This document shows positions 289 to 34,915 of a stretch of DNA of 64,000 nt, one piece after another (the first letter of the stretch is position 1; each line of letters opens with the position of its first letter). The notes under the pieces are model-generated. The model ran no database searches. It had not been told where the DNA came from and worked only from the letters and a program-made list of their open reading frames with translations. Where the stretch lies: the NCBI GenBank assembly GCA_964538435.1, contig CAZIDX010000001.1, positions 203,304 to 267,303 on the forward strand, written 5' to 3'. The stretch is from an uncultured Gammaproteobacteria bacterium (GTDB lineage: Bacteria > Patescibacteriota > Patescibacteriia > UBA9934 > GWF2-40-263). A program made the translations under genes and the position numbers.

Positions 289-1359
289 TTACTTAGGACC
301 TTGTGCAGAATATACCCTTGTCGCAAACCATGTTGCAATCGGGACCAACAGAACAAGCGTGCTCGTACCTGCAATGGTACGTATAATTTCCTCAGCAATA
401 ATCTCTTCGTTCAACAATCGTATAATTCCGATATCATCTCGAAGTGCAAAAAGGAGAAAAATAGGGAGAGCTACACCTGAATAAGCCAAGACAAGAGTAT
501 TCACTACAGAAGCAATATGATGTCTTCCAACAGACATAGCCTTTTTGTAAAGCTCCCTAGATGTAAGCTTTGGATTTGTCTCGTGAAGCTCGAAAACAGT
601 TTCTGTTTGTGTAATAGCAATATCATCCAACACACCAACCGCACCCAAGATGATTCCAGCCAACAACAATCCCGATGGAAGCTCAATGGCATCAGTGGTC
701 AAAAACAATAAAGAAGCTTCCTCCGAACCCAACCCAGAGAGTCGAGAAAAATACACAAAGAAAGCTGAAAAAAACCATGCAAAGCACAAACCGATGATCG
801 TACTGAAATACGCGTAAACAGTTCTTTTGTTGAAACCATGTGTCAATGGAAGGTTTATAAGCAAAATCATAGCTGATCCGATGACTGTGATAAGCACAGG
901 ATCAACACCATTAAGAATCTGAGGAACGATAACACCAAACAAGATCGCACAGGTAACAGCAAGACCGACAAGCGATGTAAGACCTCTCTTTCTGCCAACC
1001 AAAACAACAAGCACTGCAAAAAACAAAACGATCCAAAGAAGCGAAGGCGTCCTTACAACATCGACAAGAAACACTTGCACCGTATCATCAGGATAGACAA
1101 TAACTTGCAACAAAACCTCTTGCCCCACCTCCAAATCATACCGCGCATCACCAAGCAGCGATTCACTACCGTCCACTACATAGCTCACACCCTCATCATC
1201 AACCGCAGTAAAAGTTGCATGCGCACCGTCATCAATCTCTTCCACAAAATCAATCGAGCTCACACTCGCACGAACCTCCTGACTAGACTGAGCATGCACA
1301 AAACCACCTGACGCAAAAAACAAACTTATAACAAAGACTGCAAAAAGATATTTTTTCAT
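289..1359 (-). CDS. YibE/F-family polytopic membrane protein (signal peptide plus multiple TM helices)
   Basis: ORF 289..1539, trimmed to the internal Met (MKKYLFAVFVISLFFASGG...), ATG at 1357-1359. The hydrophobic multi-TM C-terminal half resembles YibE/F. Confidence 0.55.
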   Translation of the reverse strand: MKKYLFAVFVISLFFASGGFVHAQSSQEVRASVSSIDFVEEIDDGAHATFTAVDDEGVSYVVDGSESLLGDARYDLEVGQEVLLQVIVYPDDTVQVFLVDVVRTPSLLWIVLFFAVLVVLVGRKRGLTSLVGLAVTCAILFGVIVPQILNGVDPVLITVIGSAMILLINLPLTHGFNKRTVYAYFSTIIGLCFAWFFSAFFVYFSRLSGLGSEEASLLFLTTDAIELPSGLLLAGIILGAVGVLDDIAITQTETVFELHETNPKLTSRELYKKAMSVGRHHIASVVNTLVLAYSGVALPIFLLFALRDDIGIIRLLNEEIIAEEIIRTIAGTSTLVLLVPIATWFATRVYSAQGPK

Positions 1360-1430
1360 ACAAGAGAAATTATAACAGATCAGACACCACTCACTTAAAC
1401 AAAAACACCTGTAATCAGATGTCTTCTGCT

Positions 1431-1458
1431 GGCTCCGAATACTGAACGGGTTCAGAAC
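1431..1458. repeat. REP-like hairpin repeat GGCTCCGAATACTGAACGGGTTCAGAAC (copy a)
   Basis: Near-identical copies at 1561-1588 and, degenerate, at 7772-7799. Contains an internal palindrome CTGAACGGGTTCAG. Confidence 0.6.
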
Positions 1459-1503
1459 GGTTGATTGTAACACATCCGCATATAGACCTGACCCCATAGC
1501 CCC
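1459..1503. repeat. Solo copy of the IS right-end inverted repeat (…CATATAGACCTGACCCCATAGC)
   Basis: Matches 11703-11748, the right end of the Y1-transposase element, with a 2-nt deletion. No transposase is adjacent. Confidence 0.6.
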
Positions 1504-1533
1504 ATACACAAACTCTCGCCCAACCAAACAAAA

Positions 1534-1566
1534 AACCACAGCAAGCTGTGATTTTTTGTTGGCTCC
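1534..1566. terminator. Bidirectional hairpin terminator (CCACAGCAAGCTGTGG flanked by A and T runs), duplicated at 11891-11916
   Basis: The stem CACAGC/GCTGTG with TTTTTTG on both strands is seen directly. The same 31 bp follows the tRNA-Asn 3' end at 11891-11921. Confidence 0.55.
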
Positions 1567-1663
1567 GAATAGTAAACGAGTTCAGAACCGTGGATTGGAA
1601 GAAATTTCACTCAATAGTAACTCAATTTACAAACGCAAATTTCTGCCACTGCTGATATTCTAA

Positions 1664-2980
1664 CTAACTTTCGAGGACTGACCAGTATGGCTGATCATAA
1701 TTTTCACCATTTATATCCTTCAAGATATCAATGTGTTCTTGTGACAATCCATTCACGAGATCGTTTAAATAACTGATAAATTTATCACGATCATTTAAAG
1801 TAAAAAATCGTGTGTCATATTCACCAATACGAAATTGTTTTCGAGTGCCTTTTGGCAACTCTTTCAAAACTCTAGCCGATTGCTTGTCAACGAACATAGC
1901 GTCACAATATGGCAAGTAACTAGAAATAAATTGCATATCTGCAGTAGATTTTGGTGCCTTCTTTTCTCCCAAACGAGCTGATCGAGCCAATCCCGCAAAC
2001 ATTACTGAGTTAATTTTAAGATAAGGCACATCTAACAGAGAATCGGCGTCATTGAGGTACTTATGAATGATATCCAAAACTTTTGTTTGATCGACACCTT
2101 TTTCAATTGCACTTTGTATAAGTTTACTGAGCAAAGAAAAAGCGGGTGGTGGCAAGATATCGTTTATTTCAAATTGAAAGGTTGGATCAGAAACTGCCCT
2201 CAATGTTGCGTTTTCTCTTCTTTGAACAAAGGCCCTTGTTGAAGTCAATACACCTTTTCCGAAACCGAGAACCTCTTCTCTAACCCTATCCTCGAAAGAC
2301 ATTTCTTCAGACTGCCACCGCTTCCAGATATTTGCCAACTGTTGTTCTGTGGAAGTATTTACTTTTTTCAGGTTATCAATCTCCTCAGCTTGTTGTGAAA
2401 AACCCACCGAAATCCTCATGCCGATCTCCCAAGTATGTAAATCTCTAAATGAAATATTTTGAGGGTCAAGTTCAAATATTGCATGTTTCCCATCTAGCCA
2501 GCAAGCAAAGTGCTGTCGCACTTGTTGTTCTTCAATGACGTGCGCTGGAAACAATGTTTTCCCACCAGAAAAATGTTCGTATAACTTTTTTGCCACCTGA
2601 AAATCAATGCCACCAAAGCTTGACTCATCCTTATGAAAAAAGCTGTCTGGACAAACGATCACTTGTGATTTAGAAGCCCTCTCTAAAGCAACAAATAGAT
2701 CGTGCCAAAATGGGTCTCTTTTTATTCGCTCATGACTTGGGTGCGTAGAATCAAGTAGCTTTATCAGATTACTGATTACAAATTGATCTAAATAAATAAC
2801 CTGCTTAAACAGATCTGGCAGGCTGATACGATTCTGATAATGACATTTCACACATTCTCTTGTGTAATAATTGTCACCTGAAATAATAATCAAAACACCA
2901 AAAGATGTTTTGCTCTTGCATGAAGGACAATCTTTATAGGGTTCAGTTATTAAATCATTTCTTGATAACTCTTGAGCCAT
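1664..2980 (-). CDS. Hypothetical protein with N-terminal CxxC…CxxC zinc ribbon, last gene of the RM operon
   Basis: ORF 1664..3106. Start moved to MAQELSRNDL… (ATG at 2978-2980), 7 nt after the upstream gene stop. Motif CPSCKSKTS…ECVKCH. No recognisable catalytic domain. Confidence 0.45.
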   Translation of the reverse strand: MAQELSRNDLITEPYKDCPSCKSKTSFGVLIIISGDNYYTRECVKCHYQNRISLPDLFKQVIYLDQFVISNLIKLLDSTHPSHERIKRDPFWHDLFVALERASKSQVIVCPDSFFHKDESSFGGIDFQVAKKLYEHFSGGKTLFPAHVIEEQQVRQHFACWLDGKHAIFELDPQNISFRDLHTWEIGMRISVGFSQQAEEIDNLKKVNTSTEQQLANIWKRWQSEEMSFEDRVREEVLGFGKGVLTSTRAFVQRRENATLRAVSDPTFQFEINDILPPPAFSLLSKLIQSAIEKGVDQTKVLDIIHKYLNDADSLLDVPYLKINSVMFAGLARSARLGEKKAPKSTADMQFISSYLPYCDAMFVDKQSARVLKELPKGTRKQFRIGEYDTRFFTLNDRDKFISYLNDLVNGLSQEHIDILKDINGENYDQPYWSVLES

Positions 2981-2987
2981 AGGCCAC

Positions 2988-4475
2988 TCATACCAAGCTA
3001 AGCAGTCTTCTATATATTTCAACCATTGCCAACGTGTCCAGCTTACAGTATTCGAGTAGGTCTTTGGCGATCTGGTTTTTTTCTTTTTGAGAAGTCTCTG
3101 GATCAATCATCTTTTCCCATCGCTCAACTGCTTGGTCACCCTTCTGCACATTCAATGCTTTGTAAGTCAGCTCTGGCACAAGGACTGGTAACACCTTCTT
3201 GATACTCGCACTCCCCATAAACTTTGCATCAACATACATGTTTTTTGAGAAGATATGCATGAGATCAAACATGCGGTCATTCATGCCCTCAAGGAAGTCA
3301 GTGTGTTCTGGATGCAGCTCTGCGAGCTTATTGTTTCGCTGCGATTCGTACGACTTATACCAAGAGATAACAGAACCCTTGTCATCAAAATCTTTTCTCA
3401 TCTGCTCAATGAGCGGCAGGGTCAAATCTTTTGTTGGCTCAGTAATCAAAAACTCTTTATGCTCCATTGTTCCGTCTTCATGCAACACATGTAGCGAATA
3501 CTGGAACGGCACTTGTTCATAAGCACCAAAGCCGCTGAACCGAGGAATTGCAGACGAATAACCCTCATAATCAAAGAAGTGAATTGGAAACACAAGCTCG
3601 TCTAACGCTTCCTTAATAGCCTCATGGTCAATGAGAGGCTTACCAGCCATATAGGCGTTGTATTGGGCTAATTTCGCCCCTGTGAGCTTCTCAGGGTTAT
3701 CTATATCCTCAAATGCGTAGATACCACGATCAATCCAGTCATAAAACAACTTCTTGCTCCCACCAATACGATTGATGTCATGAACCGAATACTCAGGAAC
3801 GTCAGGATTCGAGTAAACAAACGTCGTACATTGCGCATTGCGGCCACGATACAAACACTGACATCCTTTCTCTTCTGGATCGTGTAAATAGGCTTTCAAA
3901 TCACTCATTTGAGCTTGTACCTCTTCCTCGGCACCAAGCACTTCATCGGTTAAATCAGCAATGATAAACAAGTCGTCATAATTAACCTTCGTAAGCATTC
4001 GATACTCACTATTAAGATGAATGACGCCCGACTTAACTATCTTCACACCACAGCCTTCAATAACAGTCTTCTGAAACGCAAGATCATTTACATGATGATG
4101 AGGCACAACACGCTTAACATCATTGGTCGCCTTAACCTCATACAACTCCCAACCACCTAACACTTCGTTAAAGCGCAAAACGTCAGCCTGAACAAAAAAC
4201 TCATCATGCAAAAATGCACCCTGAAAAATGGTGTGTGTTTTTGTTTCAAGAAGACTCTCTGTAAACGGCACTGCATTAGGACCAACAATCTCAACCAAGA
4301 CACCATCAGGAAACAGACCTCTTGCAGCTTCATCCGCAAGGTTTCCTTCTTCAATAATCTTCTTCTCAAACTCAGAAAGTTCTACCCCATCAAAAAGCTC
4401 TGGCTTATGCTTCTTCAGCCAAAGATTCTTCCTGCAATAGGTGTATTCAAGATAGTCAGTCTTTGTGATGTGCAT
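2988..4475 (-). CDS. DUF2779-like nuclease (Cas4/RecB-like PD-(D/E)xK N-terminal region plus exonuclease-like C-terminal region)
   Basis: N-terminus MHITKTDYLEYTYCRKNLWLKKHKPELF fits the characteristic DUF2779 start (…SKS.F..G.QC.K.LWL…H.PEL). Cys cluster CQCLYRGRNAQC. ATG at 4473-4475, 1 nt from the RM stop. Alternative start at 4502. Confidence 0.55.
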   Translation of the reverse strand: MHITKTDYLEYTYCRKNLWLKKHKPELFDGVELSEFEKKIIEEGNLADEAARGLFPDGVLVEIVGPNAVPFTESLLETKTHTIFQGAFLHDEFFVQADVLRFNEVLGGWELYEVKATNDVKRVVPHHHVNDLAFQKTVIEGCGVKIVKSGVIHLNSEYRMLTKVNYDDLFIIADLTDEVLGAEEEVQAQMSDLKAYLHDPEEKGCQCLYRGRNAQCTTFVYSNPDVPEYSVHDINRIGGSKKLFYDWIDRGIYAFEDIDNPEKLTGAKLAQYNAYMAGKPLIDHEAIKEALDELVFPIHFFDYEGYSSAIPRFSGFGAYEQVPFQYSLHVLHEDGTMEHKEFLITEPTKDLTLPLIEQMRKDFDDKGSVISWYKSYESQRNNKLAELHPEHTDFLEGMNDRMFDLMHIFSKNMYVDAKFMGSASIKKVLPVLVPELTYKALNVQKGDQAVERWEKMIDPETSQKEKNQIAKDLLEYCKLDTLAMVEIYRRLLSLV

Positions 4476-4476
4476 A

Positions 4477-7400
4477 TCATTCAGGTTTCCAAACATCATC
4501 AATCTCTCTCATGATACGCTCAGTATTTGTCAAAGCGACGATGATTTTTTGCCAGTGGAGAATGTCGTCAAAAGTCAACCTGCACCCGCATCGATTTTTC
4601 AACCATCTCTGTGCAGGCTTGTATCCACCTATGTGAAAGTCCCAAGTATTTTCAGGAACTTTATCAAAATACTGCGTTTTGTTGATGTACACCTTTCCTG
4701 CATCAAATTTAGGATAACTTTTCTCAATTGTATTCGATCCAGAAAACGGAAACTCTGTTTTGGGCTTATCGGAAGCTTTATGATTCAAAAGGTGATAGTT
4801 ACGCAATTCTCCACCTAGTTTGATCAATTCTACAAACCGCTCGGCTGTGTCAGGATACGGGATGCAAGGAAAGTTTGTGCTCAAAAATTTTACATATTTT
4901 TTTCGGTATGAAGGTGAATACAAAATCGCGTATACATAATCAAATACATCAAGCGGTGAAAAAACATCACCTTCTGTATCATTGATTGTGGTAGCATCAA
5001 AACTGAATCTCAACCCGGTTGACCGTTCTATTTTACTCACGATATCTTGATCTAAATTCGGATTTCGGTATTGATTTTCATTAGTCCCAAATGACGTTTG
5101 ATTTGATTTATCATCATATGTATACAGTGGAAAAATCGCCGACTGTGTCGTGCGTTCAGCAAACTTCGCCTCAGTTATCAGACTGCTAACAAAAAAATGA
5201 TCTGGCCTGCCACTCTTATTACTTCGCGCGCTTGCAAGAGCCAAGTTGTTACCTGTCAGCATGTTTCGCATTACACTCCCTCTGTCTCTTTCAATAAAAT
5301 CTGGACTGTAATAGATGTGTCGGTTATCGAACGGTCTATACGAAATCTGTTTAATATTTTCTGAGTCGTATGAATGCTGTTGCGCTTGCGCTATCTTCCA
5401 GCTCTTATTTTCACGGAGATTATATTTATTCTTAGCTATTATGGGATCAAGTGTTAGAAATTCCTCTATTCTTACTTGTAATTGTTCTTTATCAAAATCA
5501 ATAACGAATGCATCTCTTGATGTCACAATCCCAACCGAATTTATTGGAAACAGAATGTTTAGATAAAAACCTTCCTCATACTTTTCCATTGCTTGAAAAT
5601 CACATCTAACGAATGGGTAATTAGGCGCTTGATTATTTAAAGTAACCCAGTTGATGGATCTAATATCATTATTCATGAGATCGTTATACTTCTCGTTTCG
5701 TTTTCCATAAAAGTCAGCATGAAGTATCTCTGCCAGCTCACTTGTTTTTCTACCATTTTTTATTGCCAAAATGATTGAAACCCCTTGCTTAATATCGAAG
5801 ACATTCTCATCTTTTCCTCCATCTGGTGCAGTCTCATTTCTTTGAGAATTACCATGTAGGTCAACTATATATATTTTGTCGAAGGTCGTAAGTAGATGCC
5901 AACGCATACCTCGAAAAGTTGGGTTATCCAGGTAACCATGATTTGTAACAAATCCAAGAACCCCCTCTCCGCTCTGTTCGATCATGTATTCTGAAAATCG
6001 CATGAACTTCACATAGTCATCATTGATCCATTTTGGATTTCGTTCACGTAATTTTTCTATTCCACCAGGCTCCTTCTTATATGCTTCCATCAGACCCATG
6101 ATGAAGTCACCCTTATTTTTTGACTCACCACTATAAGGAGGATTACCAAGTATGACCACTACTGGAGTCTCTTTTTTAACCTTATTCGCGGCATTTGCTT
6201 CGTTACTAAGCCAGGAAGAAAATAATGTATTTGTATCAGGATGTGCCTCTTCCAAACTATTAGTCAAATAGACACCAAGACGTTCGTTGGTATTTTTCTT
6301 TTGTCTATAACCAAATTCAGTAAGCAATAAATCAAGCTTTAAATGACACATGGCATAAGGTGCCATCAGAAGTTCAAAACCGTGGATTCGAGGTAATAAA
6401 TGTTCATTCACATAACTGTCCCAAATACCTTCCTGCCCTTCGAAGTTTGAGTGTATCTTACGAACAATTTCTGCCAAAAAAGTTCCTGTTCCAGTGGCTG
6501 GATCTAGAATTTGTACTCGATGCACTTCTTTTTCGATCCTTCGTTTTCCATCCTTGTATCGACCATCTGCCATCTGTGCATCAACCTCAACAGTAGTCAT
6601 GCTTGTATCAGCCAGACCTTTTTCCAGATTGAATTCATCTTTTAGAATATCGTCAATCGCCCGAACAATGAATTGAACAACCGGCTCCGGCGTATACCAT
6701 ACCCCACGAGATTTGCGCAGTTCAGGGTTAAACTCAGAAAGAAAAGTCTCATAGAAATGAATGAAAGGATCTAATCGCTTACTCTCAGAATGGAAGCTCT
6801 CCAAAATCTTTTTCACATCCGCAGCCCGGAATACATCTGCAAGCGCATCCACAATCCAAACGATACGATCATCTAGATCAGGACCAGCGACAGTGTTAAA
6901 CAACTTGCGTAAAAAAGGATTTGTTTTTGGTAAGAGTTCAGCTGCTTCTTGTCGACTAAAAGTATCAAGTGTTGGATCATGCAAGCGAGCTGCAAAGAGG
7001 CCGTATGCAATTGTCTGAGCGTACATGTCAGCAAACTCATCTTCTTTCATGTCATGAATCAGCACATTTCGAAAAGCTTGAAGCTCGCTTCGCAGATTAG
7101 ACTCTTCTTCTTCTGAATTTAGTGCTTTTGTGATCACATCTTTCATCAACCTTGCTTTTCCAGCCATGGCTTTTACCAGCCTGGATGCGGATTTGATCGT
7201 CTGACCATTATATGAAATGAAATCAGTTAACAAGTGCTGGAAGCGCTCAACTTCCTTATGATCAAAGATGATTTTATTCTTCTCTTTTGTACCAACGCAC
7301 ACTTGATCAACTTTTTCTCCATTAACAAAAAAACGAAAGTCTAAATAATCTGTTAAAACTAGATTATCTAAACTTTCAAGATATCTTTTTATTTGATCAC

Positions 7401-7653
7401 TGTTCTCGACATCATCAAGAGCAGTGCCAACATCCTTAGCCTCAATATAGCCAATCGGAACCTCTTTTTTTGTAAGAATGAAGTCTGGTGCCCCACACTC
7501 CTGACGCTTAGGTTCATTAACTGCAGAAATATTCTTGTCTAAATTTTCAATGAGGCTCTTTAGCATTGGACGGTAGCTATGTTCCGTTGCTTGGCCTGTA
7601 TCAAACTCTCTTTGGACAGACAAAAAATACTCTGCAAAAGTATCTTCATTCAT
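4477..7653 (-). CDS. Type IIG restriction-modification enzyme (MmeI/YeeA-like: PD-ExK nuclease, gamma-class N6-adenine methyltransferase, target-recognition domain)
   Basis: 1058 aa. N-terminal APDFIL…GYIEAKDVG (PD…EAK nuclease motif). SAM motif I VQILDPATGTGTFL. Catalytic motif IV ILGNPPYSG. C-terminal region …ILYSPSYRKKY…YKPAQRWLKNR typical of MmeI/Type ISP target-recognition and coupler domains. Confidence 0.75.
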   Translation of the reverse strand: MNEDTFAEYFLSVQREFDTGQATEHSYRPMLKSLIENLDKNISAVNEPKRQECGAPDFILTKKEVPIGYIEAKDVGTALDDVENSDQIKRYLESLDNLVLTDYLDFRFFVNGEKVDQVCVGTKEKNKIIFDHKEVERFQHLLTDFISYNGQTIKSASRLVKAMAGKARLMKDVITKALNSEEEESNLRSELQAFRNVLIHDMKEDEFADMYAQTIAYGLFAARLHDPTLDTFSRQEAAELLPKTNPFLRKLFNTVAGPDLDDRIVWIVDALADVFRAADVKKILESFHSESKRLDPFIHFYETFLSEFNPELRKSRGVWYTPEPVVQFIVRAIDDILKDEFNLEKGLADTSMTTVEVDAQMADGRYKDGKRRIEKEVHRVQILDPATGTGTFLAEIVRKIHSNFEGQEGIWDSYVNEHLLPRIHGFELLMAPYAMCHLKLDLLLTEFGYRQKKNTNERLGVYLTNSLEEAHPDTNTLFSSWLSNEANAANKVKKETPVVVILGNPPYSGESKNKGDFIMGLMEAYKKEPGGIEKLRERNPKWINDDYVKFMRFSEYMIEQSGEGVLGFVTNHGYLDNPTFRGMRWHLLTTFDKIYIVDLHGNSQRNETAPDGGKDENVFDIKQGVSIILAIKNGRKTSELAEILHADFYGKRNEKYNDLMNNDIRSINWVTLNNQAPNYPFVRCDFQAMEKYEEGFYLNILFPINSVGIVTSRDAFVIDFDKEQLQVRIEEFLTLDPIIAKNKYNLRENKSWKIAQAQQHSYDSENIKQISYRPFDNRHIYYSPDFIERDRGSVMRNMLTGNNLALASARSNKSGRPDHFFVSSLITEAKFAERTTQSAIFPLYTYDDKSNQTSFGTNENQYRNPNLDQDIVSKIERSTGLRFSFDATTINDTEGDVFSPLDVFDYVYAILYSPSYRKKYVKFLSTNFPCIPYPDTAERFVELIKLGGELRNYHLLNHKASDKPKTEFPFSGSNTIEKSYPKFDAGKVYINKTQYFDKVPENTWDFHIGGYKPAQRWLKNRCGCRLTFDDILHWQKIIVALTNTERIMREIDDVWKPE

Positions 7654-7736
7654 ATTGTGCTTTGGTAGGATTTTATTTGCAAAAAGGGGTCAGGTCGGAC
7701 TACGGACTTTTTCTATCTCAATTTTATCACAAAAAG

Positions 7737-7766
7737 AAAAACGAACGCTATTGATGACGTTCGTTC
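7737..7766. terminator. Palindromic hairpin AACGAACGctattgatgaCGTTCGTT between the two island modules
   Basis: An 8-bp perfect stem is seen directly, downstream of the 7800..8567 gene on the minus strand. Confidence 0.35.
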
Positions 7767-7799
7767 CTCTTGGCTCCGAATTGTGGAGGATGTTAGAAC

Positions 7800-8567
7800 T
7801 CAAATTTCAAAGAACATCTCAATCTCCTCTCTTACAACAGCTTGAATTCTTTCAACAAAAGGTAAGACATACTCGGCCCTCGACTTGTCGTCAGGAACAT
7901 CATTTTCATCAACGTGATAACACGAAGGAGAGGTGGCTACTATTATTATATCTGGCCTCTTTGGTAATGAAGTAAATAGATGGTTTAAAAAAGTCTTTAT
8001 TTCAACATCACTCACAATAGAATCACCTTCGTCCGAAGGATAAAAATAATCAATATCAATATCAAGAAAAAGAATAGACTTGCTAGAAATACCCATCACA
8101 CTTTTACAAAACGACTCTTGATCAACAAAATTTTCAAACTTAAAATTCAATTTACAATCTTTGTTGAAAACCCCACGCACCTGACTCTGACGACACAACG
8201 TAAATATTTTTGCGCCCTCCCCACACTCATAAAGAAAAGGATAAATGAAATTTTCGAATTGCAACCACTCGTTTTCAAAATGATCTATTTCAGATAATTC
8301 CTTAGGCAAATAGTGAAGCATGTCTTTATCAATAACAGCATCAGGATGCGCATCAATGTGCAGAAGGATTATTCTGTTACCACACGACTTTGTCATCAGA
8401 AATCTTTTCCAAACACCATAAGCCAACCTATGATTGTTCATGATGAAATAAGCATTCTTTTCGTCCTTCAATAAAAACCTTCCACCTAAAGCGCTTGTAA
8501 AATCGTTATTTACACTTTCAAGATTTTGCTTATATCTCCAGCCATTATCCTCTTGGTCTAACTCCAT
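7800..8567 (-). CDS. Arginase/deacetylase-fold (ureohydrolase superfamily, UPF0489-like) metallohydrolase
   Basis: Motifs NNHRLAYG … ILLHIDAHPDAV … FLDIDIDYFYPSDEGD correspond to the GGDHS / DAHxD / SxDxDxxDP metal-ligand motifs of the arginase family. Confidence 0.5.
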   Translation of the reverse strand: MELDQEDNGWRYKQNLESVNNDFTSALGGRFLLKDEKNAYFIMNNHRLAYGVWKRFLMTKSCGNRIILLHIDAHPDAVIDKDMLHYLPKELSEIDHFENEWLQFENFIYPFLYECGEGAKIFTLCRQSQVRGVFNKDCKLNFKFENFVDQESFCKSVMGISSKSILFLDIDIDYFYPSDEGDSIVSDVEIKTFLNHLFTSLPKRPDIIIVATSPSCYHVDENDVPDDKSRAEYVLPFVERIQAVVREEIEMFFEI

Positions 8568-8633
8568 AAGTAATAATAGTAGATAAAACCGACCTCGTGG
8601 CCGGAGTATAATTTATCACAAACCTTCTCGATT

Positions 8634-9092
8634 TTATTGTTTTCCCGTGGTGATATTTTCAAAGACCTCCTTAAATTTGTTTCTTTTCCTTTTTTCCATA
8701 AACGACCAATCCATACTCTGCTCCAGAACTTCAATCATGTCAGAATTATCTAGCTCGTATATAACCTCTGACACACCATACTTTAAGGTCCTTCGGAATA
8801 AGTAAATCTTACCTTTGTATTCGAAATAATACGGTCTAACGATATTAAACTCATCTTCAAGCTTTTGTTTCAGAACAGAAAACTCACCGCTACCCCTATC
8901 AACAATTGGCTCTTCTGAAATTTTTGCACGTAATTCCTGTGCCGACAATCCAATATTTTTTGCATTAACAAACGCATCGAAATATCGTTCGTATAAATTT
9001 ATAAAGTACCCAACCACATCAATATCGACCACAAAAGGCTCGTTCGGACCAAATGTCTTCCATTCCAACTCATCTTGTATAACTCTTTTCAT
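8634..9092 (-). CDS. Hypothetical protein (152 aa), part of the four-gene module
   Basis: Intact ORF tightly packed with neighbours (15-nt and 66-nt gaps). No recognisable motif. Confidence 0.4.
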   Translation of the reverse strand: MKRVIQDELEWKTFGPNEPFVVDIDVVGYFINLYERYFDAFVNAKNIGLSAQELRAKISEEPIVDRGSGEFSVLKQKLEDEFNIVRPYYFEYKGKIYLFRRTLKYGVSEVIYELDNSDMIEVLEQSMDWSFMEKRKRNKFKEVFENITTGKQ

Positions 9093-9107
9093 ATTCTAGA
9101 TGCTTAT

Positions 9108-9662
9108 TTACAAAAGCCCCAATTCAGACAAGATACTAGCAGCAACACTATTCTGATTAGTGAGACTGACTTGCTCCGTTATCATCGCACCCGAACACAA
9201 CTCGACCGCTTTCATAAACTTCTTCTCAAAGTCTGCATCGGTAAACTTTTTCAAGAAAAACAAAGCCATCAACAAAACTGACCACATTGTGTAAGTATCA
9301 ACTCCTGTTGCAAACAACCCGAAACCATTTGCTTTCATCTGAAAGTTCATGTGATCCCGATCTGGATCAAAAGATATATCACCAACAAAATTCTTTTTTT
9401 CTGTTCGTGAAAATTCAAGTAAATTATTGATTGCATCTTCTGGAAAATATTCTGAACCCTGTTCCGAAAGCTCATTCAAAGCCATAGAAAGATATTGCAT
9501 CGTTGGATTTCCTTTAAGATTCGAAAACTGTCTCAAAGTAAATAATAGGAAAGCAAGAATTGCGCCTCTTTGATTTTCCTGAGCACTGTCACCAGACGTT
9601 TCAAAAAGAAAAGCTGCCTTATTTTCTTCCTTGCAGTGAATTTCAAAATGTATTGTTGTCAT
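9108..9662 (-). CDS. Hypothetical protein (184 aa), part of the four-gene module
   Basis: Intact ORF, 1-nt gap to the upstream gene. No recognisable motif. Confidence 0.4.
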   Translation of the reverse strand: MTTIHFEIHCKEENKAAFLFETSGDSAQENQRGAILAFLLFTLRQFSNLKGNPTMQYLSMALNELSEQGSEYFPEDAINNLLEFSRTEKKNFVGDISFDPDRDHMNFQMKANGFGLFATGVDTYTMWSVLLMALFFLKKFTDADFEKKFMKAVELCSGAMITEQVSLTNQNSVAASILSELGLL

Positions 9663-9663
9663 A

Positions 9664-10713
9664 TCACTTTTTCCAAGAAGTTTTACCTAAAACTATGTAA
9701 TAGAAAACTTTAGAGATTGCAAAAAATACCGCAACCGTTACCACAATAAACCAAGAACCTATTTCAGGATCATCAAGGTAAAGGGCCCATCCCAACAACA
9801 ATGTTAGCACAAGAGCAACGACATACAGCACCTTTAAGAATCTAAACCAAACCTTGCCTTGCAGTGGATTCTGAGAAACTGGATGTGCTGTGGTGGCATC
9901 GGCTTGTTCTGGAGATGCAACATTGTTCATGTACTCTTCAGGTTTACCAAAAAGACCCTCTGCTAATTCTGAGATGCGTTGGAGCAATTCAGATTCTTTT
10001 TTTGATGACTGTTCTAACAATCGAGTTGCTCTATCCACTCTCAACTTCATTTCTGTTGCGGAAATTTGTTTGGGCATTACCCCATCATTGTCTACAACAA
10101 TTGCTGGAATGATTCTTTCAATTGCAAGATTCTCTTCAAGGGCAGTTGCGGCATCCTTTCTTGCATCCTGTAGTTGATTAACCAAACCATTCCACTCGCT
10201 AAAGTTAGCACCTAAAACTTTAATGGAATCTTCTTGGCTATACTTATGCAATTTTTTGAAATCAATTTTCTTCAAAAATGACTCTATTCGCAACAACAGT
10301 GAAGCAACAACCTCCTGTTGTGTAAGCACACTTTCAAAAACCCGCTCCTCATAAACATCAATGATTTGCATTGCCGTTTTTGCAAGTTTCAAATTCTCCT
10401 CTTGGGTTTGAGTGTTATTAGGATCAGACAAAAGATCAGAAATTCTCTGCAAAGCCACAAAAGCATCATTCTCATCCTTGTGATCAAAATGAAAAGCAAG
10501 ATAGGACCCTTGTTTAATAGACGCTTTCTGAACCTCAGTTCCCAAAGCAATCAACAACTTCAAATTCCGATAATCAATTTTTGATTGTTCATATTCTTCG
10601 CGTGCTTTATCAATCTTTTTCTTGAAAAGGGTAAAAGGGTCAGGTCTATATATGATACTACTTTCTAGATATCTGTCCGATTGTTGAACAGTGAAGCCCG
10701 AGATGTTTCGCAA
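9664..10713 (-). CDS. Coiled-coil protein with C-terminal 2-TM region (possible membrane effector). N-terminus runs into IS-derived sequence, so the gene is likely 5'-truncated.
   Basis: C-terminus …VWFRFLKVLYVVALVLTLLLGWALYLDDPEIGSWFIVVTVAVFFAISKVFYYIVLG has two predicted TM helices. The first ~27 codons (10633-10713) lie in another frame inside the duplicated transposase 3' end and IR. Confidence 0.4.
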   Translation of the reverse strand: MRNISGFTVQQSDRYLESSIIYRPDPFTLFKKKIDKAREEYEQSKIDYRNLKLLIALGTEVQKASIKQGSYLAFHFDHKDENDAFVALQRISDLLSDPNNTQTQEENLKLAKTAMQIIDVYEERVFESVLTQQEVVASLLLRIESFLKKIDFKKLHKYSQEDSIKVLGANFSEWNGLVNQLQDARKDAATALEENLAIERIIPAIVVDNDGVMPKQISATEMKLRVDRATRLLEQSSKKESELLQRISELAEGLFGKPEEYMNNVASPEQADATTAHPVSQNPLQGKVWFRFLKVLYVVALVLTLLLGWALYLDDPEIGSWFIVVTVAVFFAISKVFYYIVLGKTSWKK

Positions 10714-11032
10714 TTTCAGTACTCAAATATCCACATCTAAACCTTGCAAACTTGATAGCATTATCTCGTTCTTGTTTTGATGAAACCCCTTCAAATATTT
10801 CATCAAGTGTGGGTCTGCCAACAATTCGTTGTAAAAGGGTCAGGTCTATATATGATGCTACTTTCTCGATATCTGTCCGATTGTTGAACAGTGAAGCCCG
10901 AGATGTTTCGCAATTTCAGTACTCAAATATCCACATCTAAACCTTGCAAACTTGATAGCATTATCTCGTTCTTGTTTTGATGAAACCCCTTCAAATATTT
11001 CATCAAGTGTGGGTCTGCCAACAATTCGTTGT
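10633..11032. repeat. 200-bp tandem duplication (10633-10832 and 10833-11032, 2 mismatches) covering the left IR and the 3' end of the transposase gene
   Basis: Direct comparison of the two 200-nt units. Confidence 0.85.
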
Positions 11033-11740
11033 TCTCTTGGATACTCTTTGAGCTGTTCAGAGCCGTTTGTATGATTCTCCCAAATCCAATGAACATACTG
11101 AGGAGACCCAAGTATAAATCCATTCGTGAGATCATTATATGGATTATCCGCAGCAATACCATCCATCACAAACTTTCTATACTGTTTCTGTGCTTCTTTT
11201 CTCTCATCTCCAAATAAACTTAGTATCCAATCTGTGTGCAACCACTCAGGACATTTACTCGTTCCTGCTGTGTGTTGGTAACTACTCCACTTCCATTTTT
11301 TGGGATGGTCGCAGAGAGAATCGCGAACCGGGTTCAAGACAATATATCGAGAAACAGCTAGAAGATAGGTGTCTTTTTCTATAACGAATGCCTTGTAGCG
11401 TCCTTGCATCAAATGTCCGACTGTTTTGTGTCGTGCGTTAAAAGATTGCGTGTAGTTTCCATTAATGTCACGCATAGCTTTTGAGAGATTTCCATCAGGG
11501 GTCTCGATAAGTAAGTGGTAATGGTTGTCCATCAAACAATATGCATGAACGATGAGATTGTGTAGTTCAACAGCATCCTGAATCATTTCAAGAAAAAGAA
11601 GACGATCCTTGTCTTCTTTGTAAATATTTTGATAGCCATTACCTCTAGACATCACATGATAGAGGGCTCCAGGATATTCAACTCTCAGTGGTCTTGCCAT
11701 ATGGTTGATTGTAACACATCCTCATATATAGACCTGACCC
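10837..11740 (-). mobile_element. IS200/IS605-like (Y1 HUH transposase) element bounded by 19-bp perfect inverted repeats GGGTCAGGTCTATATATGA, RAYT/REP-like organisation
   Basis: IR at 10837-10855 and its reverse complement at 11722-11740 flank the single transposase ORF. Extra solo or partial IR copies at 1459-1503, 10637-10655 and 7685-7698. Confidence 0.6.
10858..11700 (-). CDS. Y1 (HUH) tyrosine transposase, IS200-like TnpA fused to a DnaA-domain-IV-like C-terminal HTH
   Basis: LYHVMSRGN … CLMDNHYHLLIE (HuH motif) … RYIVLNPV. C-terminus LSTEIAKHLGLHCSTIGQISRK resembles the DnaA C-terminal DNA-binding helix. Confidence 0.8.
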   Translation of the reverse strand: MARPLRVEYPGALYHVMSRGNGYQNIYKEDKDRLLFLEMIQDAVELHNLIVHAYCLMDNHYHLLIETPDGNLSKAMRDINGNYTQSFNARHKTVGHLMQGRYKAFVIEKDTYLLAVSRYIVLNPVRDSLCDHPKKWKWSSYQHTAGTSKCPEWLHTDWILSLFGDERKEAQKQYRKFVMDGIAADNPYNDLTNGFILGSPQYVHWIWENHTNGSEQLKEYPREQRIVGRPTLDEIFEGVSSKQERDNAIKFARFRCGYLSTEIAKHLGLHCSTIGQISRK

Positions 11741-11756
11741 CATAGCACAACTTCAA

Positions 11757-11843
11757 AACCTCCTGACTCGACTGAGCATGTACAAAACCACCTGACGTAA
11801 AAAACAAACTTATAACAAAGACTGCAAAAAGATATTTTTTCAT
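11757..11843 (-). pseudogene. Duplicated 5' fragment of the yibE/F-like gene (promoter plus first ~29 codons) fused to the IS right end
   Basis: 11757-11893 is ~96% identical to 1273-1409. Translating from the ATG at 11841-11843 gives MKKYLFAVFVISLFFTSGGFVHAQSSQEV, then reads into IS sequence. Confidence 0.55.
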
Positions 11844-11916
11844 ACAAGGGAAATTATAACAGATCAGACACCACTCACTTCAAACAAAAAACCACAGCAA
11901 TGCTGTGATTTTTTGT

Positions 11917-11991
11917 TGGCTCGGGGGGTGGGGTTCGAACCCACGACCCACTGGTTAACAGCCAGTTGCTCTGCCACTGAGCTACCCCCGA
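11917..11991 (-). tRNA. tRNA-Asn (anticodon GTT), CCA encoded
   Basis: Reverse complement folds as TCGGGGG-TA-GCTCAGTGGCAGAGC-A-ACTGG-CTGTTAA-CCAGT-GGGTC-GTGGGTTCGAACCCCAC-CCCCCGA-G-CCA. Confidence 0.85.
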
Positions 11992-12233
11992 ACGTTTTCG
12001 TCTAGCCATTTCCTTCCTTGCACACATTTGAGAAACCTCTCTCTTTTCATGGCTTCAGACTTTGTTTGATACTCTTCTACATGGATTAAACTAAATGGCC
12101 CATTTTGTCTAGTCCATTGATTTGTACCAGTTAGGTGTTCATGCAATCGTACATTAACATCCCTGCTTGTAAAACCAACGTATCTTTTGTTGTTTTTTGT
12201 ACTACGCAAGACGTAGACCGAATATTTCTTCAT
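11982..12233 (-). CDS. GIY-YIG nuclease-domain protein (UPF0213/YhbQ-like)
   Basis: YSVYVLRSTKNNKRYVGFTSRDVNVRLHEH. The 3' end overlaps the tRNA-Asn 5' end by ~10 nt. Confidence 0.65.
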   Translation of the reverse strand: MKKYSVYVLRSTKNNKRYVGFTSRDVNVRLHEHLTGTNQWTRQNGPFSLIHVEEYQTKSEAMKRERFLKCVQGRKWLDENVRG

Positions 12234-12237
12234 ACAG

Positions 12238-12329
12238 CCCCCGCCGGAGGCGGGTCCGCCTTTGGCGGAAGTTGCTCTGCCACAAAGCTCTGACCGAAGG
12301 TCAGTCCGCCTCTGGCGGAACCCCCGAAT
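12238..12329. other. tRNA-Asn 5'-half-like fragment interrupted by four 13-15-nt GC hairpins with tetraloops (possible ncRNA or att-site remnant)
   Basis: AGTTGCTCTGCCACAAAGCTC … ACCCCCGAA matches the tRNA-Asn antisense CAGTTGCTCTGCCACTGAGCTACCCCCGAA. Hairpins: CCCGCCggagGCGGG, TCCGCCtttGGCGGA, CTGACCgaagGTCAG, TCCGCCtctGGCGGA. Confidence 0.5.
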
Positions 12330-12471
12330 CTATTCTTTTCTCAAAGAACGAGGAGAGTATAGCAAAAACCAACACCACGCGCAAGGGTCTAAATCCACAT
12401 GCAAACTCTTGAAGTTTTTACTCCTTCATGTTAAACAAACCACGGCAAAACAACCCCCTGGAGAACACCAG

Positions 12472-13326
12472 ATGCCCATCAAACTCGTTGTCACTGACTT
12501 CGACGGCACCATGACCGACGCTGAAGCCGAAGGCCTCCCCTTCATCGAGAGCTACACCGAGATGCTCCTGCACCTCACTGGCCTGGACACCGGGACCTTC
12601 TACGCACTCTTCGACGGCATGTCGCAGCAGATCCATGAGCACCCGCACAAGCACGGTGTGAAAAAGGGTGGAATCATGGTGGCACCTGCCATCGTGGACC
12701 CGTACCTGCGCATGCAGACGATTGCTGGCATGATCTTCGACCGCGAAGGGCTGTTCACAGACTCGCGCGACCGAGCCAACCTGCTCGAGATGATGTTCAG
12801 GGCCAGCTACGCCAAAACCGATGTCGTGCCTCGTCTAGGCGCTGTCGAGCTTCTCACCGCACTCACCCAGAGCAGCGACCTCGACACCTGCATCGTGACC
12901 AATGCACGGACCAAGAGCGTTCAGCACAAACTCGAAGTCATGGGCATGAACTCTGGCAGCATTCCGCTTTGCGCAAATGCCCAGAAATTCTTCATCGGAG
13001 ACGATCCCGCTCGCATCCCCGAGCGCATCCAACTGCTCGAAGAAACCGACGATCACCGCTGGATCTACCCGCGCCGCAGCAAGTACTACGAGCTGCTGAA
13101 CTTCCTTCGCAGACAGAACGAGCTGGACTGGTCCGAGATCTGCGTCATCGGCGACATCTTCGAACTCGACCTGGCCCTCCCCTTCCTCCTGGGCTGCGAG
13201 GTCATCCTGATCGTCAACGACATGACGCCAGGCTACGAAATCGACTGGCTCTCTCGCCTGACAGACGCGCGCGCACGAATCTTCGGCGACCTCAACGACG
13301 TCCGAGGTTACCTCCTCGGATACTAA
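12472..13326 (+). CDS. HAD-superfamily hydrolase (high-GC gene)
   Basis: Motif I VVTDFDGTMTD, RBS GGAG upstream. Start moved from 12262 to the ATG at 12472. Confidence 0.7.
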   Translation: MPIKLVVTDFDGTMTDAEAEGLPFIESYTEMLLHLTGLDTGTFYALFDGMSQQIHEHPHKHGVKKGGIMVAPAIVDPYLRMQTIAGMIFDREGLFTDSRDRANLLEMMFRASYAKTDVVPRLGAVELLTALTQSSDLDTCIVTNARTKSVQHKLEVMGMNSGSIPLCANAQKFFIGDDPARIPERIQLLEETDDHRWIYPRRSKYYELLNFLRRQNELDWSEICVIGDIFELDLALPFLLGCEVILIVNDMTPGYEIDWLSRLTDARARIFGDLNDVRGYLLGY

Positions 13327-13353
13327 CCCCGCCTTGCGGGGTTTTCTGATATA
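13327..13353 (+). terminator. GC hairpin CCCCGCcttgCGGGG plus TTTTCTGATATA (conserved high-GC-block terminator motif)
   Basis: Seen directly. The motif recurs at 14787-14800, 27361-27397, 43758-43770, 62241-62255 (minus strand) and 63427-63439 (minus strand). Confidence 0.6.
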
Positions 13354-13389
13354 CTCTAACTGATCCCGACTAACCCTTAACACAAACCT

Positions 13390-13899
13390 ATGTTAGTCAA
13401 CAACATCCCAACCATGAACATGGACATGTCCGAAACTGGATGCTGTCCAAAATTCCAGCCCCTTGCCTGGGACAACAAAGAAATCGTCCTCGATAACAAG
13501 CTTTTCCTCAAAGTCAAAACAAAAAGCTTCTTGCACATCCCCCTCAACATGAAAGGTGTGTTCATGAAAGCTTGTTCTGACATGCAAAAGCACGAAGCCT
13601 CTCCAACTGACAGTTACATGATCCTCTCGCACGATCCATCTCCTTGGCGAGCCGAGCATTTCTTTGCTGTCACAAAAGAAATCCCAGGATATGAGCATGT
13701 TCGCCTCTCAGGAAACTTCCTTGCCAAAGTTTTTGAAGGCCCATACAAGAACATGCGAAACTGGCACAAAGAACTCGAAGAGCATGTCGCTGGCCACAAC
13801 CGCAAACTCAAAAAAACCTACTTCTTCTACACCACCTGCCCAAAATGTGCTAAACACTGGGGCAAGAACTACGTTGTAGGATTCGCTGAAGTTGAATAG
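13390..13899 (+). CDS. Hypothetical protein (Cys-containing, 169 aa)
   Basis: Intact ORF. Start ambiguous (several Met near the N-terminus). No confident family assignment. Confidence 0.4.
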   Translation: MLVNNIPTMNMDMSETGCCPKFQPLAWDNKEIVLDNKLFLKVKTKSFLHIPLNMKGVFMKACSDMQKHEASPTDSYMILSHDPSPWRAEHFFAVTKEIPGYEHVRLSGNFLAKVFEGPYKNMRNWHKELEEHVAGHNRKLKKTYFFYTTCPKCAKHWGKNYVVGFAEVE

Positions 13900-31242: not shown

Positions 31243-31310
31243 ATTATATCACGAACCAATTTTCAGCCCAATAAGAAAGCTCCCGAGATTACTCCCAGGA
31301 GCGCGTTGCG

Positions 31311-32645
31311 TCAAGGTGCTGGCGGATACTTGTTGGCCTCTGCCTGTTCCAAACGCATGAAGAAGTGTTCGAGAGCCGCCTGGCCTTCCGGCCTAGGATT
31401 CTCCTGCACAACCAGTGAGAGCCGTGCCACTTCATCGTATTCATCGAGCGCGTCATAGAGCTTGAGCGCTGCGTCGCTGTAACCAACCTCTTCCATTGAC
31501 TTCGCAAACGCGTAGAGTTCCTGCGTCTGCTCGTCTGCACTCAGCCCTGTCCGTGGATACCACAGAAAAAGCCGGGCCAGTTGATGTGGGTTGCACGGCT
31601 TGGGAAGATCCAGCCACGGCGCATACGGATTTCCCCCAAACACGAACGTGTTGGCTGCGTCGCTCACCACCTCCCAGGCGGCATTTTGTGCATCTTCTTC
31701 CATCCCAAGCTCACGATACATACTGTACGAACGGTGCGGCTCTGGACGCGGATGCCCATCCTCACAGATGTGCAGCGTCATGAAGTAGTCAGCTAGATGC
31801 GTTTTCCACTGCCGTTGCTTGACCGTGTGTCCAAGCACCTCAGAGAGCCACATGAGATGATCGAGCCGTTCTGCAAGCATTGAACACCAGAACGGATCCT
31901 GCACATCTGCATGCGCGAGCTGCATCATATACTCGTCTGTGTATCGAACCTTGGGATCAAAGCCGTCTTCTTTCTCGATCACGACCTCGAAAAACTGTTC
32001 GTACTCCTGAGCCTTGGGCAGAAGCTTCTCGTCACCCCCACTGGCATCCCACGCTCGGCGGAAAATCCAGAACGCATCCTCGGGATCATGAACCCCGGCC
32101 CCTGCTTGAGCTTCAGCTCCAGCTGCCTTGAGCCAGACATCGAACGTGTCGAGGTACTGATCGATCGCAGCGTGGTGCACGGGAATGAGATCCACGTAAG
32201 CTCGCATGATGGTCAGATGATCTGTGCTTCGGTCTGCCACATCCTGAATCTCCGAAAAAACCCCGCTGGCTTCATCGAAAAGATCCGGATCGTTCTGGAC
32301 CGCACGGATCCAGTTGCTCACCATGGTGGACTCGCTGTAGTACTCGCCTTGTCGCCACTGCTCAGTGTACTTACGTGCTCGCTCGAGCTCGTTCAAGGGT
32401 GGCGCCAAAGGCTCAGGCTCATACAGCTCTGTTTCAAGCTGCTCCTCCTGCACCGAACCATCGTCATCAGCGTAATCATTGCTCTCATAGCTTGGATCCC
32501 AGCTAATCACCACAAAGGCAATCACCGCGAACACCCCAAGCCCGAGCCATGCCTTCCAACTACCAGGCTTCGCTTCCACGTTCCCTCCAGTGTTCGTACA
32601 TTTTGACGTACACGCAAAACTACCCCAAAAACACTCCATTGTCAA
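31311..32645 (-). CDS. Hypothetical membrane-anchored protein (high GC)
   Basis: Intact ORF with high-GC codon usage and an N-terminal TM. Confidence 0.4.
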   Translation of the reverse strand: MTMECFWGSFACTSKCTNTGGNVEAKPGSWKAWLGLGVFAVIAFVVISWDPSYESNDYADDDGSVQEEQLETELYEPEPLAPPLNELERARKYTEQWRQGEYYSESTMVSNWIRAVQNDPDLFDEASGVFSEIQDVADRSTDHLTIMRAYVDLIPVHHAAIDQYLDTFDVWLKAAGAEAQAGAGVHDPEDAFWIFRRAWDASGGDEKLLPKAQEYEQFFEVVIEKEDGFDPKVRYTDEYMMQLAHADVQDPFWCSMLAERLDHLMWLSEVLGHTVKQRQWKTHLADYFMTLHICEDGHPRPEPHRSYSMYRELGMEEDAQNAAWEVVSDAANTFVFGGNPYAPWLDLPKPCNPHQLARLFLWYPRTGLSADEQTQELYAFAKSMEEVGYSDAALKLYDALDEYDEVARLSLVVQENPRPEGQAALEHFFMRLEQAEANKYPPAP

Positions 32646-32747
32646 TCAAAAACATACTGAAATATTGACAAGTGCCGTTATTCTGTGTGTTATCACTTGC
32701 TTCAGACTCACAGAAAGCAACATTCTGGACCTAACCTGGGAGGCATC

Positions 32748-33551: not shown

Positions 33552-33652
33552 TCCACAACCGCTACGCACCCGACAAGGACGCATCCGCTTCCTACCGGGT
33601 GCGTCTTTGTTTTCAAACAGAAAAGAGACCAGGGGGTCTCTTGCGTGTGAAC

Positions 33653-34765: not shown

Positions 34766-34915
34766 CCCTGTTTGTCAGGAGCCCCCATCCTGTCACAACC
34801 CAAATCCACTGTCAATCAAGTCCTCACGTATTCACCTGACCGTCCCCCACCTATCATTATCCAACATTATCCAATAATTCCTAATACTTAACACTAATAG
34901 ATCTTCATACACTAA

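Follow-up and report, generated by a model that had tools for sequence, protein, structure and literature searches.

What placed about 10.5 kb of foreign genes between the yibE/F gene and the tRNA-Asn gene of a Patescibacteria genome? The locus lies within 64,000 nucleotides of contig CAZIDX010000001.1, which constitute the window of this study and to whose first letter all positions refer. We consider it probable that positions 1430-11916 form a composite genomic island of a Candidatus Uhrbacteria-like (Patescibacteria) genome, set in a formerly short spacer between tRNA-Asn(GTT) and yibE/F. In this interpretation, serine integrases targeting the end of tRNA-Asn laid the island down in at least three rounds, and it was later reshuffled around a small transposon. 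The landmarks of the locus are as follows.

289-1359, minus strand: intact yibE/F gene, 356 aa (PF07907, E=1e-66), the distal chromosomal flank of the island
1401-1429, minus strand: hairpin TA, diverged and terminator-like, between scar F1 and the yibE/F promoter (sequence and alignment; missed by the terminator scan)
1430-1458, plus strand: scar F1, TGGCTCCG followed by WLRILNGFRT, read as a distal integration junction (motif and peptide comparison)
1531-1559, minus strand: hairpin T2, near-identical to T1, the terminator of tRNA-Asn (self-comparison, alignment, terminator scan)
1560-1588, plus strand: scar F2, TGGCTCCG followed by WLRIVNEFRT, with tail similarity extending to about 1605 (TVDWK)
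7734-7771, minus strand: terminator T3, following scar F3 when read in the direction of the tRNA, a 15-pair stem followed by a T run
7771-7799, plus strand: scar F3, TGGCTCCG followed by WLRIVEDVRT, 93% identical over 30 nt to one scar of the related contig L001
11885-11916, minus strand: terminator T1 of tRNA-Asn (sequence, terminator scan)
11917-11991, minus strand: tRNA-Asn(GTT), the putative integration target (tRNA scan; Rfam, 71.7 bits)

The segment is a genomic island and is compositionally foreign. Its GC content is 0.387, whereas the other 52 kb of the window have 0.48; the tetranucleotide distance of the island lies at 0.34-0.40 as against 0.13-0.26 elsewhere, about twice the background. 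The foreign DNA runs leftwards from 11916, immediately 3' of tRNA-Asn, and the core TGGCTC(C)G recurs at 1430, 1560 and 7771 in the orientation that it has at 11917. An earlier note on this DNA, made from the sequence, had proposed an island acquired at the tRNA and had named GC skew and k-mer deviation, together with a comparison of relatives, as ways to check it; the composition agrees with that proposal.

The YibE/F protein shares 68-74% amino acid identity with proteins from Ca. Uhrbacteria metagenome-assembled genomes, and scans of genome and metagenome collections returned no relative above 74%. Four loci were compared.

L071, YibE/F 69%: 670 nt between tRNA-Asn and yibE/F, with a decayed classical tRNA-end repeat just before yibE/F
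L069, YibE/F 72%: 1.64 kb between tRNA-Asn and yibE/F, holding one ORF (open reading frame)
L002, YibE/F 68%: 8.2 kb between tRNA-Asn and yibE/F, with genes unrelated to those of the window
L001, YibE/F 74%: over 5 kb upstream of yibE/F taken up by unrelated genes, the contig stopping before any tRNA

Because the content between tRNA-Asn and yibE/F is varied or unrelated among these relatives, the spacer is a recurrent insertion site. Acquisition at the tRNA is thus upheld by composition, by the near-empty sites of L071 and L069, by the unrelated content of L001 and L002 and by scars at the tRNA 3'-end core, although the comparison of relatives yielded near-empty rather than truly empty sites. 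In L071, the repeat at 8245-8276 is a decayed direct copy of the tRNA-Asn 3' end (ccagaccctcAGAGCCA) accompanied by a hairpin, about 570 nt from the real tRNA. Since this is a classical tRNA-end repeat, a different, tRNA-copying integration system seems also to have used the L071 site.

Scars and integrase tails

A 29-nt motif, GTTC-N17-CGGAGCCA on the tRNA strand, occurs three times in the window (1430-1458, 1560-1588 and 7771-7799), three times in L001 and once in L002, always in the spacer upstream of yibE/F and in the same orientation. For 12 fixed bases, chance alone would give about 0.008 copies in 64 kb. In the tRNA orientation a hairpin follows all seven copies. Read from the other side, each scar of the window is preceded by its terminator hairpin and consists of TGGCTCCG, which complements the 3' end of a tRNA-Asn, and then codons for WLRI[LV]xxxRT. 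On this opposite strand all seven scars encode W-L-R-x-[VLM]-x-x-x-R-T, with the Arg codon varying synonymously (CGA, CGT, CGC), and in all seven the homology begins exactly at TGG. Cargo ORFs often terminate right at the scars. The earlier note had seen two hairpin copies diverge at TTGGCTC; that divergence point is real, but it belongs to the 29-nt motif and is probably the att core of an integrase family. Two further TGGCTCCGAAT sites, at 1430 and 7771, were absent from that note.

The relationship to an integrase comes from the viral contig L062, in which the scar motif lies within the last codons of a 529-aa large serine recombinase (LSR), on the opposite strand (...EEWLRILDGFRTKPE...). 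The tail of this LSR, EEWLRILDGFRT, carries the same ten residues as the L002 scar, with 27 of 29 nt identical by our own count. Searches for the scar peptide pattern across the window, 207 kb of Patescibacteria loci and 535 kb of viral control DNA brought up no occurrence besides the scars and the L062 LSR. At three sites of the window we find the order expected for the distal junction of an LSR element: a host arm, the core and integrase C-terminal codons. We read the three scars as probable distal integration junctions dividing the island into three modules.

More than 600 homologues of the L062 enzyme exist, and LSR genes with Resolvase and Recombinase domains were found in L062, L075, L076 and L080-L097. 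The C-termini of the homologues fall into two classes, ending either in W..xxDxxRT tails or in tails that are antisense to tRNA (DSNLRP, ALPLGY). In L075 the LSR gene (2011-3579) overlaps a tRNA-Asn gene on the opposite strand (...AAATGGCTCCCCGGGCCGGATTCGAACC); the LSR of L076 likewise ends in antisense tRNA-Asn, at the end of the contig; and more distant homologues run into tRNA-Gln. The residue W494, encoded by TGG, the complement of CCA, is invariant in the alignment. Because members run into antisense tRNA-Asn or tRNA-Gln and share this invariant Trp codon, attP is placed inside the 3' end of the LSR gene itself. The clade is accordingly read as one that carries attP in its own ORF and would integrate at the CCA end of tRNA-Asn and tRNA-Gln genes. 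In the published view, tRNA genes were previously unknown as targets of serine integrases, and one survey found 14 of 297 candidates (PMC7192596). Across L075, L085, L086, L094, L097 and proteins P0007-P0109, the W..xxDxxRT tails of free forms mimic the tRNA T-arm, while integrated forms enter antisense tRNA-Asn or tRNA-Gln.

The target itself has changed at one base pair. The 3' end of the window's tRNA-Asn reads CCGAGCCA (pair 3:70 is G-C), whereas the scars of the window and the tRNAs of the relatives have CGGAGCCA (C-G). This compensatory change affects the integrase core at position 7, as seen against L002 (1683-1757), L069 (8288-8362) and L071 (7606-7680), whose tRNA-Asn genes match the core at eight of eight positions.

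Several other identities of the motif were considered and rejected. A plain duplicate of the tRNA 3' end is ruled out by spacing, with 29 nt from GTTC to CCA as against 24 in the tRNA, by the restriction of the resemblance to the GTTC and CGGAGCCA ends, and by codon-type conservation on the other strand. Rfam searches over 1-14 kb gave, besides the tRNA, only sub-threshold chance matches, so that an RNA gene was discarded. A Xer/dif site, a CRISPR repeat and an integron attC were considered and set aside, there being no recombinase, array or R'/R'' pairing. For the integron in particular, no intI was found, the hairpins are ordinary terminators that exclude the motif, and the motif starts GTTCTRA or GTTCGGT rather than GTTRRRY. 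The motif is not enriched in viral contigs, since the pattern with correct spacing gave 20 matches and a pattern with wrong spacing 41; L062 is the only true relative among them, and a pattern for the second scar subtype had no match in viral contigs. Finally, GGTTGATTGTAAC at 1459-1471 was rejected as an integrase tail because homologous copies of the transposon described below have a promoter-like stretch there, which makes it internal to that element.

The inverted-repeat element and the duplicated flank

The second component of the locus is an insertion sequence (IS) whose transposase resembles the REP-associated tyrosine transposases (RAYT; REP, repetitive extragenic palindrome). It is present as one full copy and three fragments, flanked by two copies of the start of yibE/F; IR_L and IR_R denote its left and right inverted repeats (IRs).

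1273-1398, minus strand: left flank copy, yibE/F promoter/5' untranslated region (UTR) and first 29 codons (self-comparison, alignment)
1459-1503, minus strand: truncated IS 5' end (IR_L and promoter region), butted against F1 and ending 2 nt before the position of the transposase ATG
7676-7700, minus strand: remnant resembling the IS 3' end (IR_R), GACCTGACCCCTTTT (sequence compared with the IR_R ends)
10631-10830, minus strand: duplicate, in tandem, of the final 200 bp of the IS (IR_R and 3' end of the transposase gene), 99% identical to 10831-11030
10831-11746, minus strand: full RAYT-like IS, with the transposase gene at 10858-11700 (280 aa; PF01797, E=3e-12)
11747-11756, unstranded: linker ACAACTTCAA, 10 nt, between the IS and the yibE/F' fragment (sequence)
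11757-11884, minus strand: right flank copy, yibE/F promoter and 29 codons, fused to the IS (self-comparison, alignment)

The transposase has a Y1_Tnp domain, with the HUH motif in NHYHLL, and SRYIVLNP is visible in the translation. Against the REP-associated tyrosine transposase model NF047646 it scored 77 bits, a borderline failure at the cut-off of 80. Its ends are perfect 19-bp IRs at 10837-10855 and 11722-11740, the repeat occurring also at 10637-10655; the subterminal hairpins without terminal IRs that typify IS200/IS605 were not found here, and four homologous copies have IRs of 17-21 bp. In homologues from Patescibacteria (L077, L078, L079) the IRs are likewise perfect, measure 17-21 bp and share both the core GGGGTCAGGTC and their placement: IR_L precedes the ATG by about 43 nt, and IR_R directly follows the stop codon. 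The inner 6-9 nt of the IR vary between these elements and yet always match between the two ends of one element. Two copies sit on one contig in L077, and many homologues are alone on contigs of about 1 kb. As far as its sequence can tell, this IS belongs to a type of RAYT-like element, with a Y1 transposase and inverted-repeat ends, that occurs throughout the Patescibacteria.

rayT genes are flanked by REPs, and the present element is like RAYT/REP and IS200/IS605 systems in that a Y1_Tnp gene with an HUH motif lies between inverted copies of a short conserved sequence. It is unlike both in its perfect 17-21-bp IR ends with a co-varying inner part in place of subterminal hairpins, and in an extra C-terminal region of about 130 aa in the transposase; unlike the REPs, its repeat is not dispersed through the window.

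Shortly beyond each of the terminators T1, T2 and T3 lies an end or remnant of the IS. A 15-nt IS-end word occurs four times where 0.05 occurrences are expected, which is not chance. The stretches 1459-1503 and 11703-11748, which the earlier note had paired as copies of the IS right end, do match (26 nt at 96% and 21 nt at 100%, with a 2-nt indel between them), but they represent the promoter-proximal end, and 1459-1503 is a truncated remnant. That note had not included the second IS end, the 200-bp tandem duplication at 10631-11030 or the third IS-end remnant at 7687-7696. The duplication comprises IR_R and the last 173 nt of the transposase gene, with two mismatches; it may reflect either a genuine partial copy of the IS or an artefact of assembly.

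All three of the repeat blocks that had been described at the two ends of the segment are present. The flank block, 1273-1409 against 11757-11893, had been put at about 96% identity and does hold the yibE/F promoter and 29 codons. Measured without gaps it is 94% identical over 137 nt, and the clean homology, read from the alignment, covers about 1273-1398 and 11757-11881. Of its roughly 125 nt, four differ (about 97% identity): one lies in the 5' UTR, two are synonymous and one changes Ala to Thr. The right-hand copy is, as had been stated, a fused pseudo-ORF, of 52 aa with 29 native and 23 foreign codons. The terminator hairpin also recurs at the 3' flank of tRNA-Asn. Together with TTGGCTC it occupies 1531-1565 and 11885-11922, with 21 nt identical and one indel in the loop; after TGGCTC one copy enters the tRNA body and the other enters CGAATAG. 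The duplicated yibE/F promoter (11844-11884) faces the transposase gene and the co-oriented island genes, and could, judging by its placement, drive their transcription.

The right-hand block, from tRNA-Asn through T1 and the promoter to yibE/F', looks like an unoccupied attB site and flank joined to the outer end of the IS. The duplicated flank most likely arose by IS-anchored recombination, so that the remodelling through an IS suggested in the earlier note is still the best reading; we infer it rather than observe it. A chimera formed within the IS during assembly would yield an identical sequence.

Proposed assembly of the island

We propose that mobile elements integrated at least three times at the tRNA-Asn 3' end, each by means of an LSR with attP in its own last codons. 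Strand exchange would have taken place within TGGCTC(C)G, the complement of the tRNA ...GAGCCA, and the far-end product of each integration would consist of the host terminator, the core and an orphaned integrase tail (WLRI[LV]xxxRT...). The surviving junctions F1, F2 and F3 would then delimit modules E1, E2 and E3, all of whose integrase genes have since been lost. The 10.4-kb segment, described before as one unit bounded by 137-bp repeats, would instead be at least three modules separated by serine-integrase junction scars. LSR integration requires an intact attB. Since, in addition, a terminator follows every scar, the tRNA and terminator site must have been restored between integrations. 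The most likely route runs through the IS. Once the IS had inserted into codon 29 of yibE/F in an allele whose site was empty, a homologous crossover between it and the IS of an island-bearing allele would have removed the integrase-proximal part, duplicated the flank and regenerated attB. The 3% divergence of the flank copies and the G-C pair at 3:70 of the tRNA fit an exchange between strains. The repeats, the scars and their match to LSR tails, the LSR genes that run into antisense tRNA-Asn or tRNA-Gln elsewhere, the composition and the near-empty sites are observations; from these remains we infer the order of events, the way in which the integrases were lost and the IS-anchored recombination.

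A number of points weigh against this scheme. No recombinase domain was detected by domain search in any island ORF, neither an LSR gene nor any other recombinase gene occurs in the window, and a tblastn search of the window with the L062 LSR matched only the scars. Thus, the assignment to an integrase rests on scars of 29-45 nt. The core agrees with the window's own tRNA-Asn (CCGAGCCA) at all six of the first positions and at only seven of eight overall. No genome of the same species turned up, no true empty site was seen, and the near-empty relatives share only 69-72% YibE/F identity. Three losses of an integrase, each leaving a clean tRNA and terminator, are not parsimonious unless IS-anchored or inter-strain recombination is frequent. 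Furthermore, the source is a metagenome-derived contig of 285 kb, and junctions beside a repeated IS could be chimeric.

The last point leads to an alternative for the duplicated flank that we regard as unlikely, namely that it is an assembly chimera of two strains, one with an empty site and the IS at yibE/F codon 29, the other with the island and the same IS. The assembler would have switched strains within the IS of about 1.1 kb, so that the island and scars would be real and the 137-bp repeat would exist in no single cell. The metagenomic origin of the contig agrees with this, as does the position of the join exactly at the outer end of a repeated element. Flank copies about 3% apart are what co-existing strains would provide, the odd 200-bp tandem duplication of the IS with its two mismatches could be an artefact of the assembly graph, and the homologues found alone on contigs of about 1 kb imply that such ISs do break assemblies. 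Conversely, homologous recombination through the IS in vivo gives the same structure, and the 10-nt linker together with the IS 5' end is a unique junction that must be present in at least some reads.

In a second alternative, to which we assign a low probability, the modules never had an integrase of their own. Small circles with an attachment site made up of a terminator, the core and an integrase-tail arm would have been captured serially at tRNA-Asn by an LSR acting in trans, encoded by a phage or another element, and the terminator arm of each new cassette would restore a usable attB. In all three genomes each scar has a terminator beside it and none has integrase remnants, the cargo ORFs end precisely at the scars, the three scars of L001 separate blocks of one or two genes that include metabolic genes, and no phage genes are present among the island cargo. 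Against this, no circular form and no cassette common to two contexts was observed, and no sequence is common to the terminator arms and the P arm of the L062 site. For canonical LSRs, specific P and B arms are a requirement. Additionally, the right-hand block has a chromosomal flank (yibE/F'), which is unexpected for a dedicated cassette.

A single event is very improbable: one circular element carrying the yibE/F promoter and 5' end (acquired through aberrant excision in an earlier host) would have integrated by homology, through a Campbell-type crossover or homology-facilitated illegitimate recombination, making the 125-bp repeats the true ends and the F motifs older passengers, as the direct repeats of about 125 bp and about 97% identity in the flank block, and the equality of T2 and T1 (terminator-bearing DNA has moved), would allow, but a crossover in yibE/F puts incoming DNA beside yibE/F and not beside an intact attB-like block of tRNA, T1 and promoter with an IS breakpoint, the IS ends beside all three terminators are left unexplained, and unrelated relatives have the same scars at the same locus.

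Cargo, surroundings and wider meaning

Under the multi-round integration that we favour, the contents of the modules are as follows.

1459-1559: E1, a remnant of about 130 bp between F1 and F2 (scar-delimited)
1589-7770: E2, a defence-type module (scar-delimited) with a type IIG restriction-modification enzyme, a DUF2779 nuclease and one unmatched protein
1664-3106, minus strand: E2, 480-aa protein without a family match (family searches)
2988-4502, minus strand: E2, DUF2779 / RecB-Cas4-like nuclease (PF11074, E=6e-37; weak Cas4 match)
4477-7653, minus strand: E2, single-chain type IIG restriction-modification enzyme, 1058 aa (PDLC03610, 1129 bits; PF18135, E=4.5e-78)
7800-11916: E3 (scar-delimited), a UPF0489 protein, three unmatched proteins and the IS
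7800-10630, minus strand: E3 cargo genes, GC 0.366 (family searches)
7800-8567, minus strand: E3, UPF0489-domain protein (domain search)
8634-9092, 9108-9662 and 9664-~10600, minus strand: E3, three proteins without a family match (family searches)

The true start of the last E3 ORF is probably further downstream, because the listed TTG at 10713 falls inside the IS fragment 10631-10830. The product of orf483 in L069 showed no similarity to that of orf480 in the window.

On the other side of the tRNA, an 83-aa ORF resembling GIY-YIG homing endonucleases (11982-12233, minus strand) ends inside the 5' end of tRNA-Asn. Directly upstream of it, within the stretch 11982-12345, lies a decayed tRNA-Asn 5' half, TTCGGGGG-T-...AGCTTTGTGGCAGAGCAACT...GGCTGT, interrupted by four GC-rich mini-hairpins and stopping at the anticodon-loop position, at the ATG of the ORF. 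The arrangement suggests that a GIY-YIG cassette entered the anticodon loop, bringing with it a replacement for the tRNA 5' half. L002 has a C-terminal remnant of a GIY-YIG-type ORF at the same place. A gene 1.2 kb upstream of the L002 tRNA-Asn (L002 1-456) has a homologue (80% amino acid identity) at 35484-35939 of the window; as this is 23.5 kb from tRNA-Asn, with order and orientation kept, the other side of the tRNA may also have gained DNA. GC content (0.53-0.57) and tetranucleotide distance (0.25-0.26) are raised at 12500-13500 and 30000-36000 relative to the rest of the window, and at 12500-13500 long ORFs overlap on both strands around a HAD-type hydrolase gene.

The island is of an ordinary kind with an unusual integrase signature. 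It is like the tycheposon islands of Prochlorococcus and tandem arrays of integrative genetic elements in lying next to a tRNA with several partial att or tRNA-end repeats from successive integrations (bioRxiv 10.1101/2020.12.28.424599; PMC7192596). As in those systems, newer elements would push older ones inward, the elements are degraded and the cargo is of defence or accessory type. It differs in that their repeats are copies of the tRNA while those here are integrase-tail codons plus an 8-bp core, in that no integrase or replication gene is left, and in its host, a member of the Patescibacteria (candidate phyla radiation, CPR). Tyrosine recombinases serve 910 of 937 tycheposon-type elements, and a minority of elements of that type bear an LSR (bioRxiv 10.1101/2020.12.28.424599).

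With LSR prophages and integrative elements (PF00239 and PF07508), the locus has in common that its scars match the C-terminal coding end of an LSR gene, that of L062, and that in integrated relatives the junction is sharp and sits at a short core. Unlike the usual LSR elements, the present clade appears to target the CCA end of tRNA-Asn and tRNA-Gln, with attP inside its own ORF, and integration would exchange the last 15-30 codons for antisense-tRNA codons. In SSV1-type fuselloviruses of Sulfolobus, attP lies inside the int gene, and integration into a tRNA strands a C-terminal int fragment at the far end of the element. The present scheme shares the attachment site within the integrase ORF and the C-terminal fragment left at the far end. 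There, however, a tyrosine recombinase of an archaeal virus has a large part of its gene split off, whereas here a bacterial serine recombinase would lose the last 15-30 codons only.

There is a slim chance that the spacer in this Uhrbacteria clade is a serine-recombinase cassette-capture site, in which integrase-less modules, each closed off by an LSR half-site plus a terminator, are taken up serially by a phage-borne LSR in trans, attB being restored at every step. If so, a CPR bacterium would have an integron-like means of acquisition that relies on a serine recombinase in place of a tyrosine recombinase, and the flip to G-C at tRNA pair 3:70 could be an escape allele closing the site.

The mobile elements of Patescibacteria are poorly charted, and this locus appears to be a conserved integration hotspot of several Uhrbacteria-like genomes, with defence cargo. 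While the kind of island is known, its scars point to a little-documented clade of tRNA-targeting LSRs with intragenic attP, and the locus also points to a Patescibacteria-wide, IR-flanked Y1 element. Serine integrases were long thought not to use tRNA genes. By way of the scars we arrived at a large clade, that of the more than 600 homologues given above. In this clade the reading frame of the LSR passes through the enzyme's own att core, at the codon that complements CCA. This suggests a rule for the att site, an invariant Trp codon with either a W..xxDxxRT tail (free form) or antisense-tRNA codons (integrated form) after it, by which scars may be recognised after the integrase has been lost. 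Because its att sites would be readable directly from sequence, the clade may also be of interest for genome engineering.

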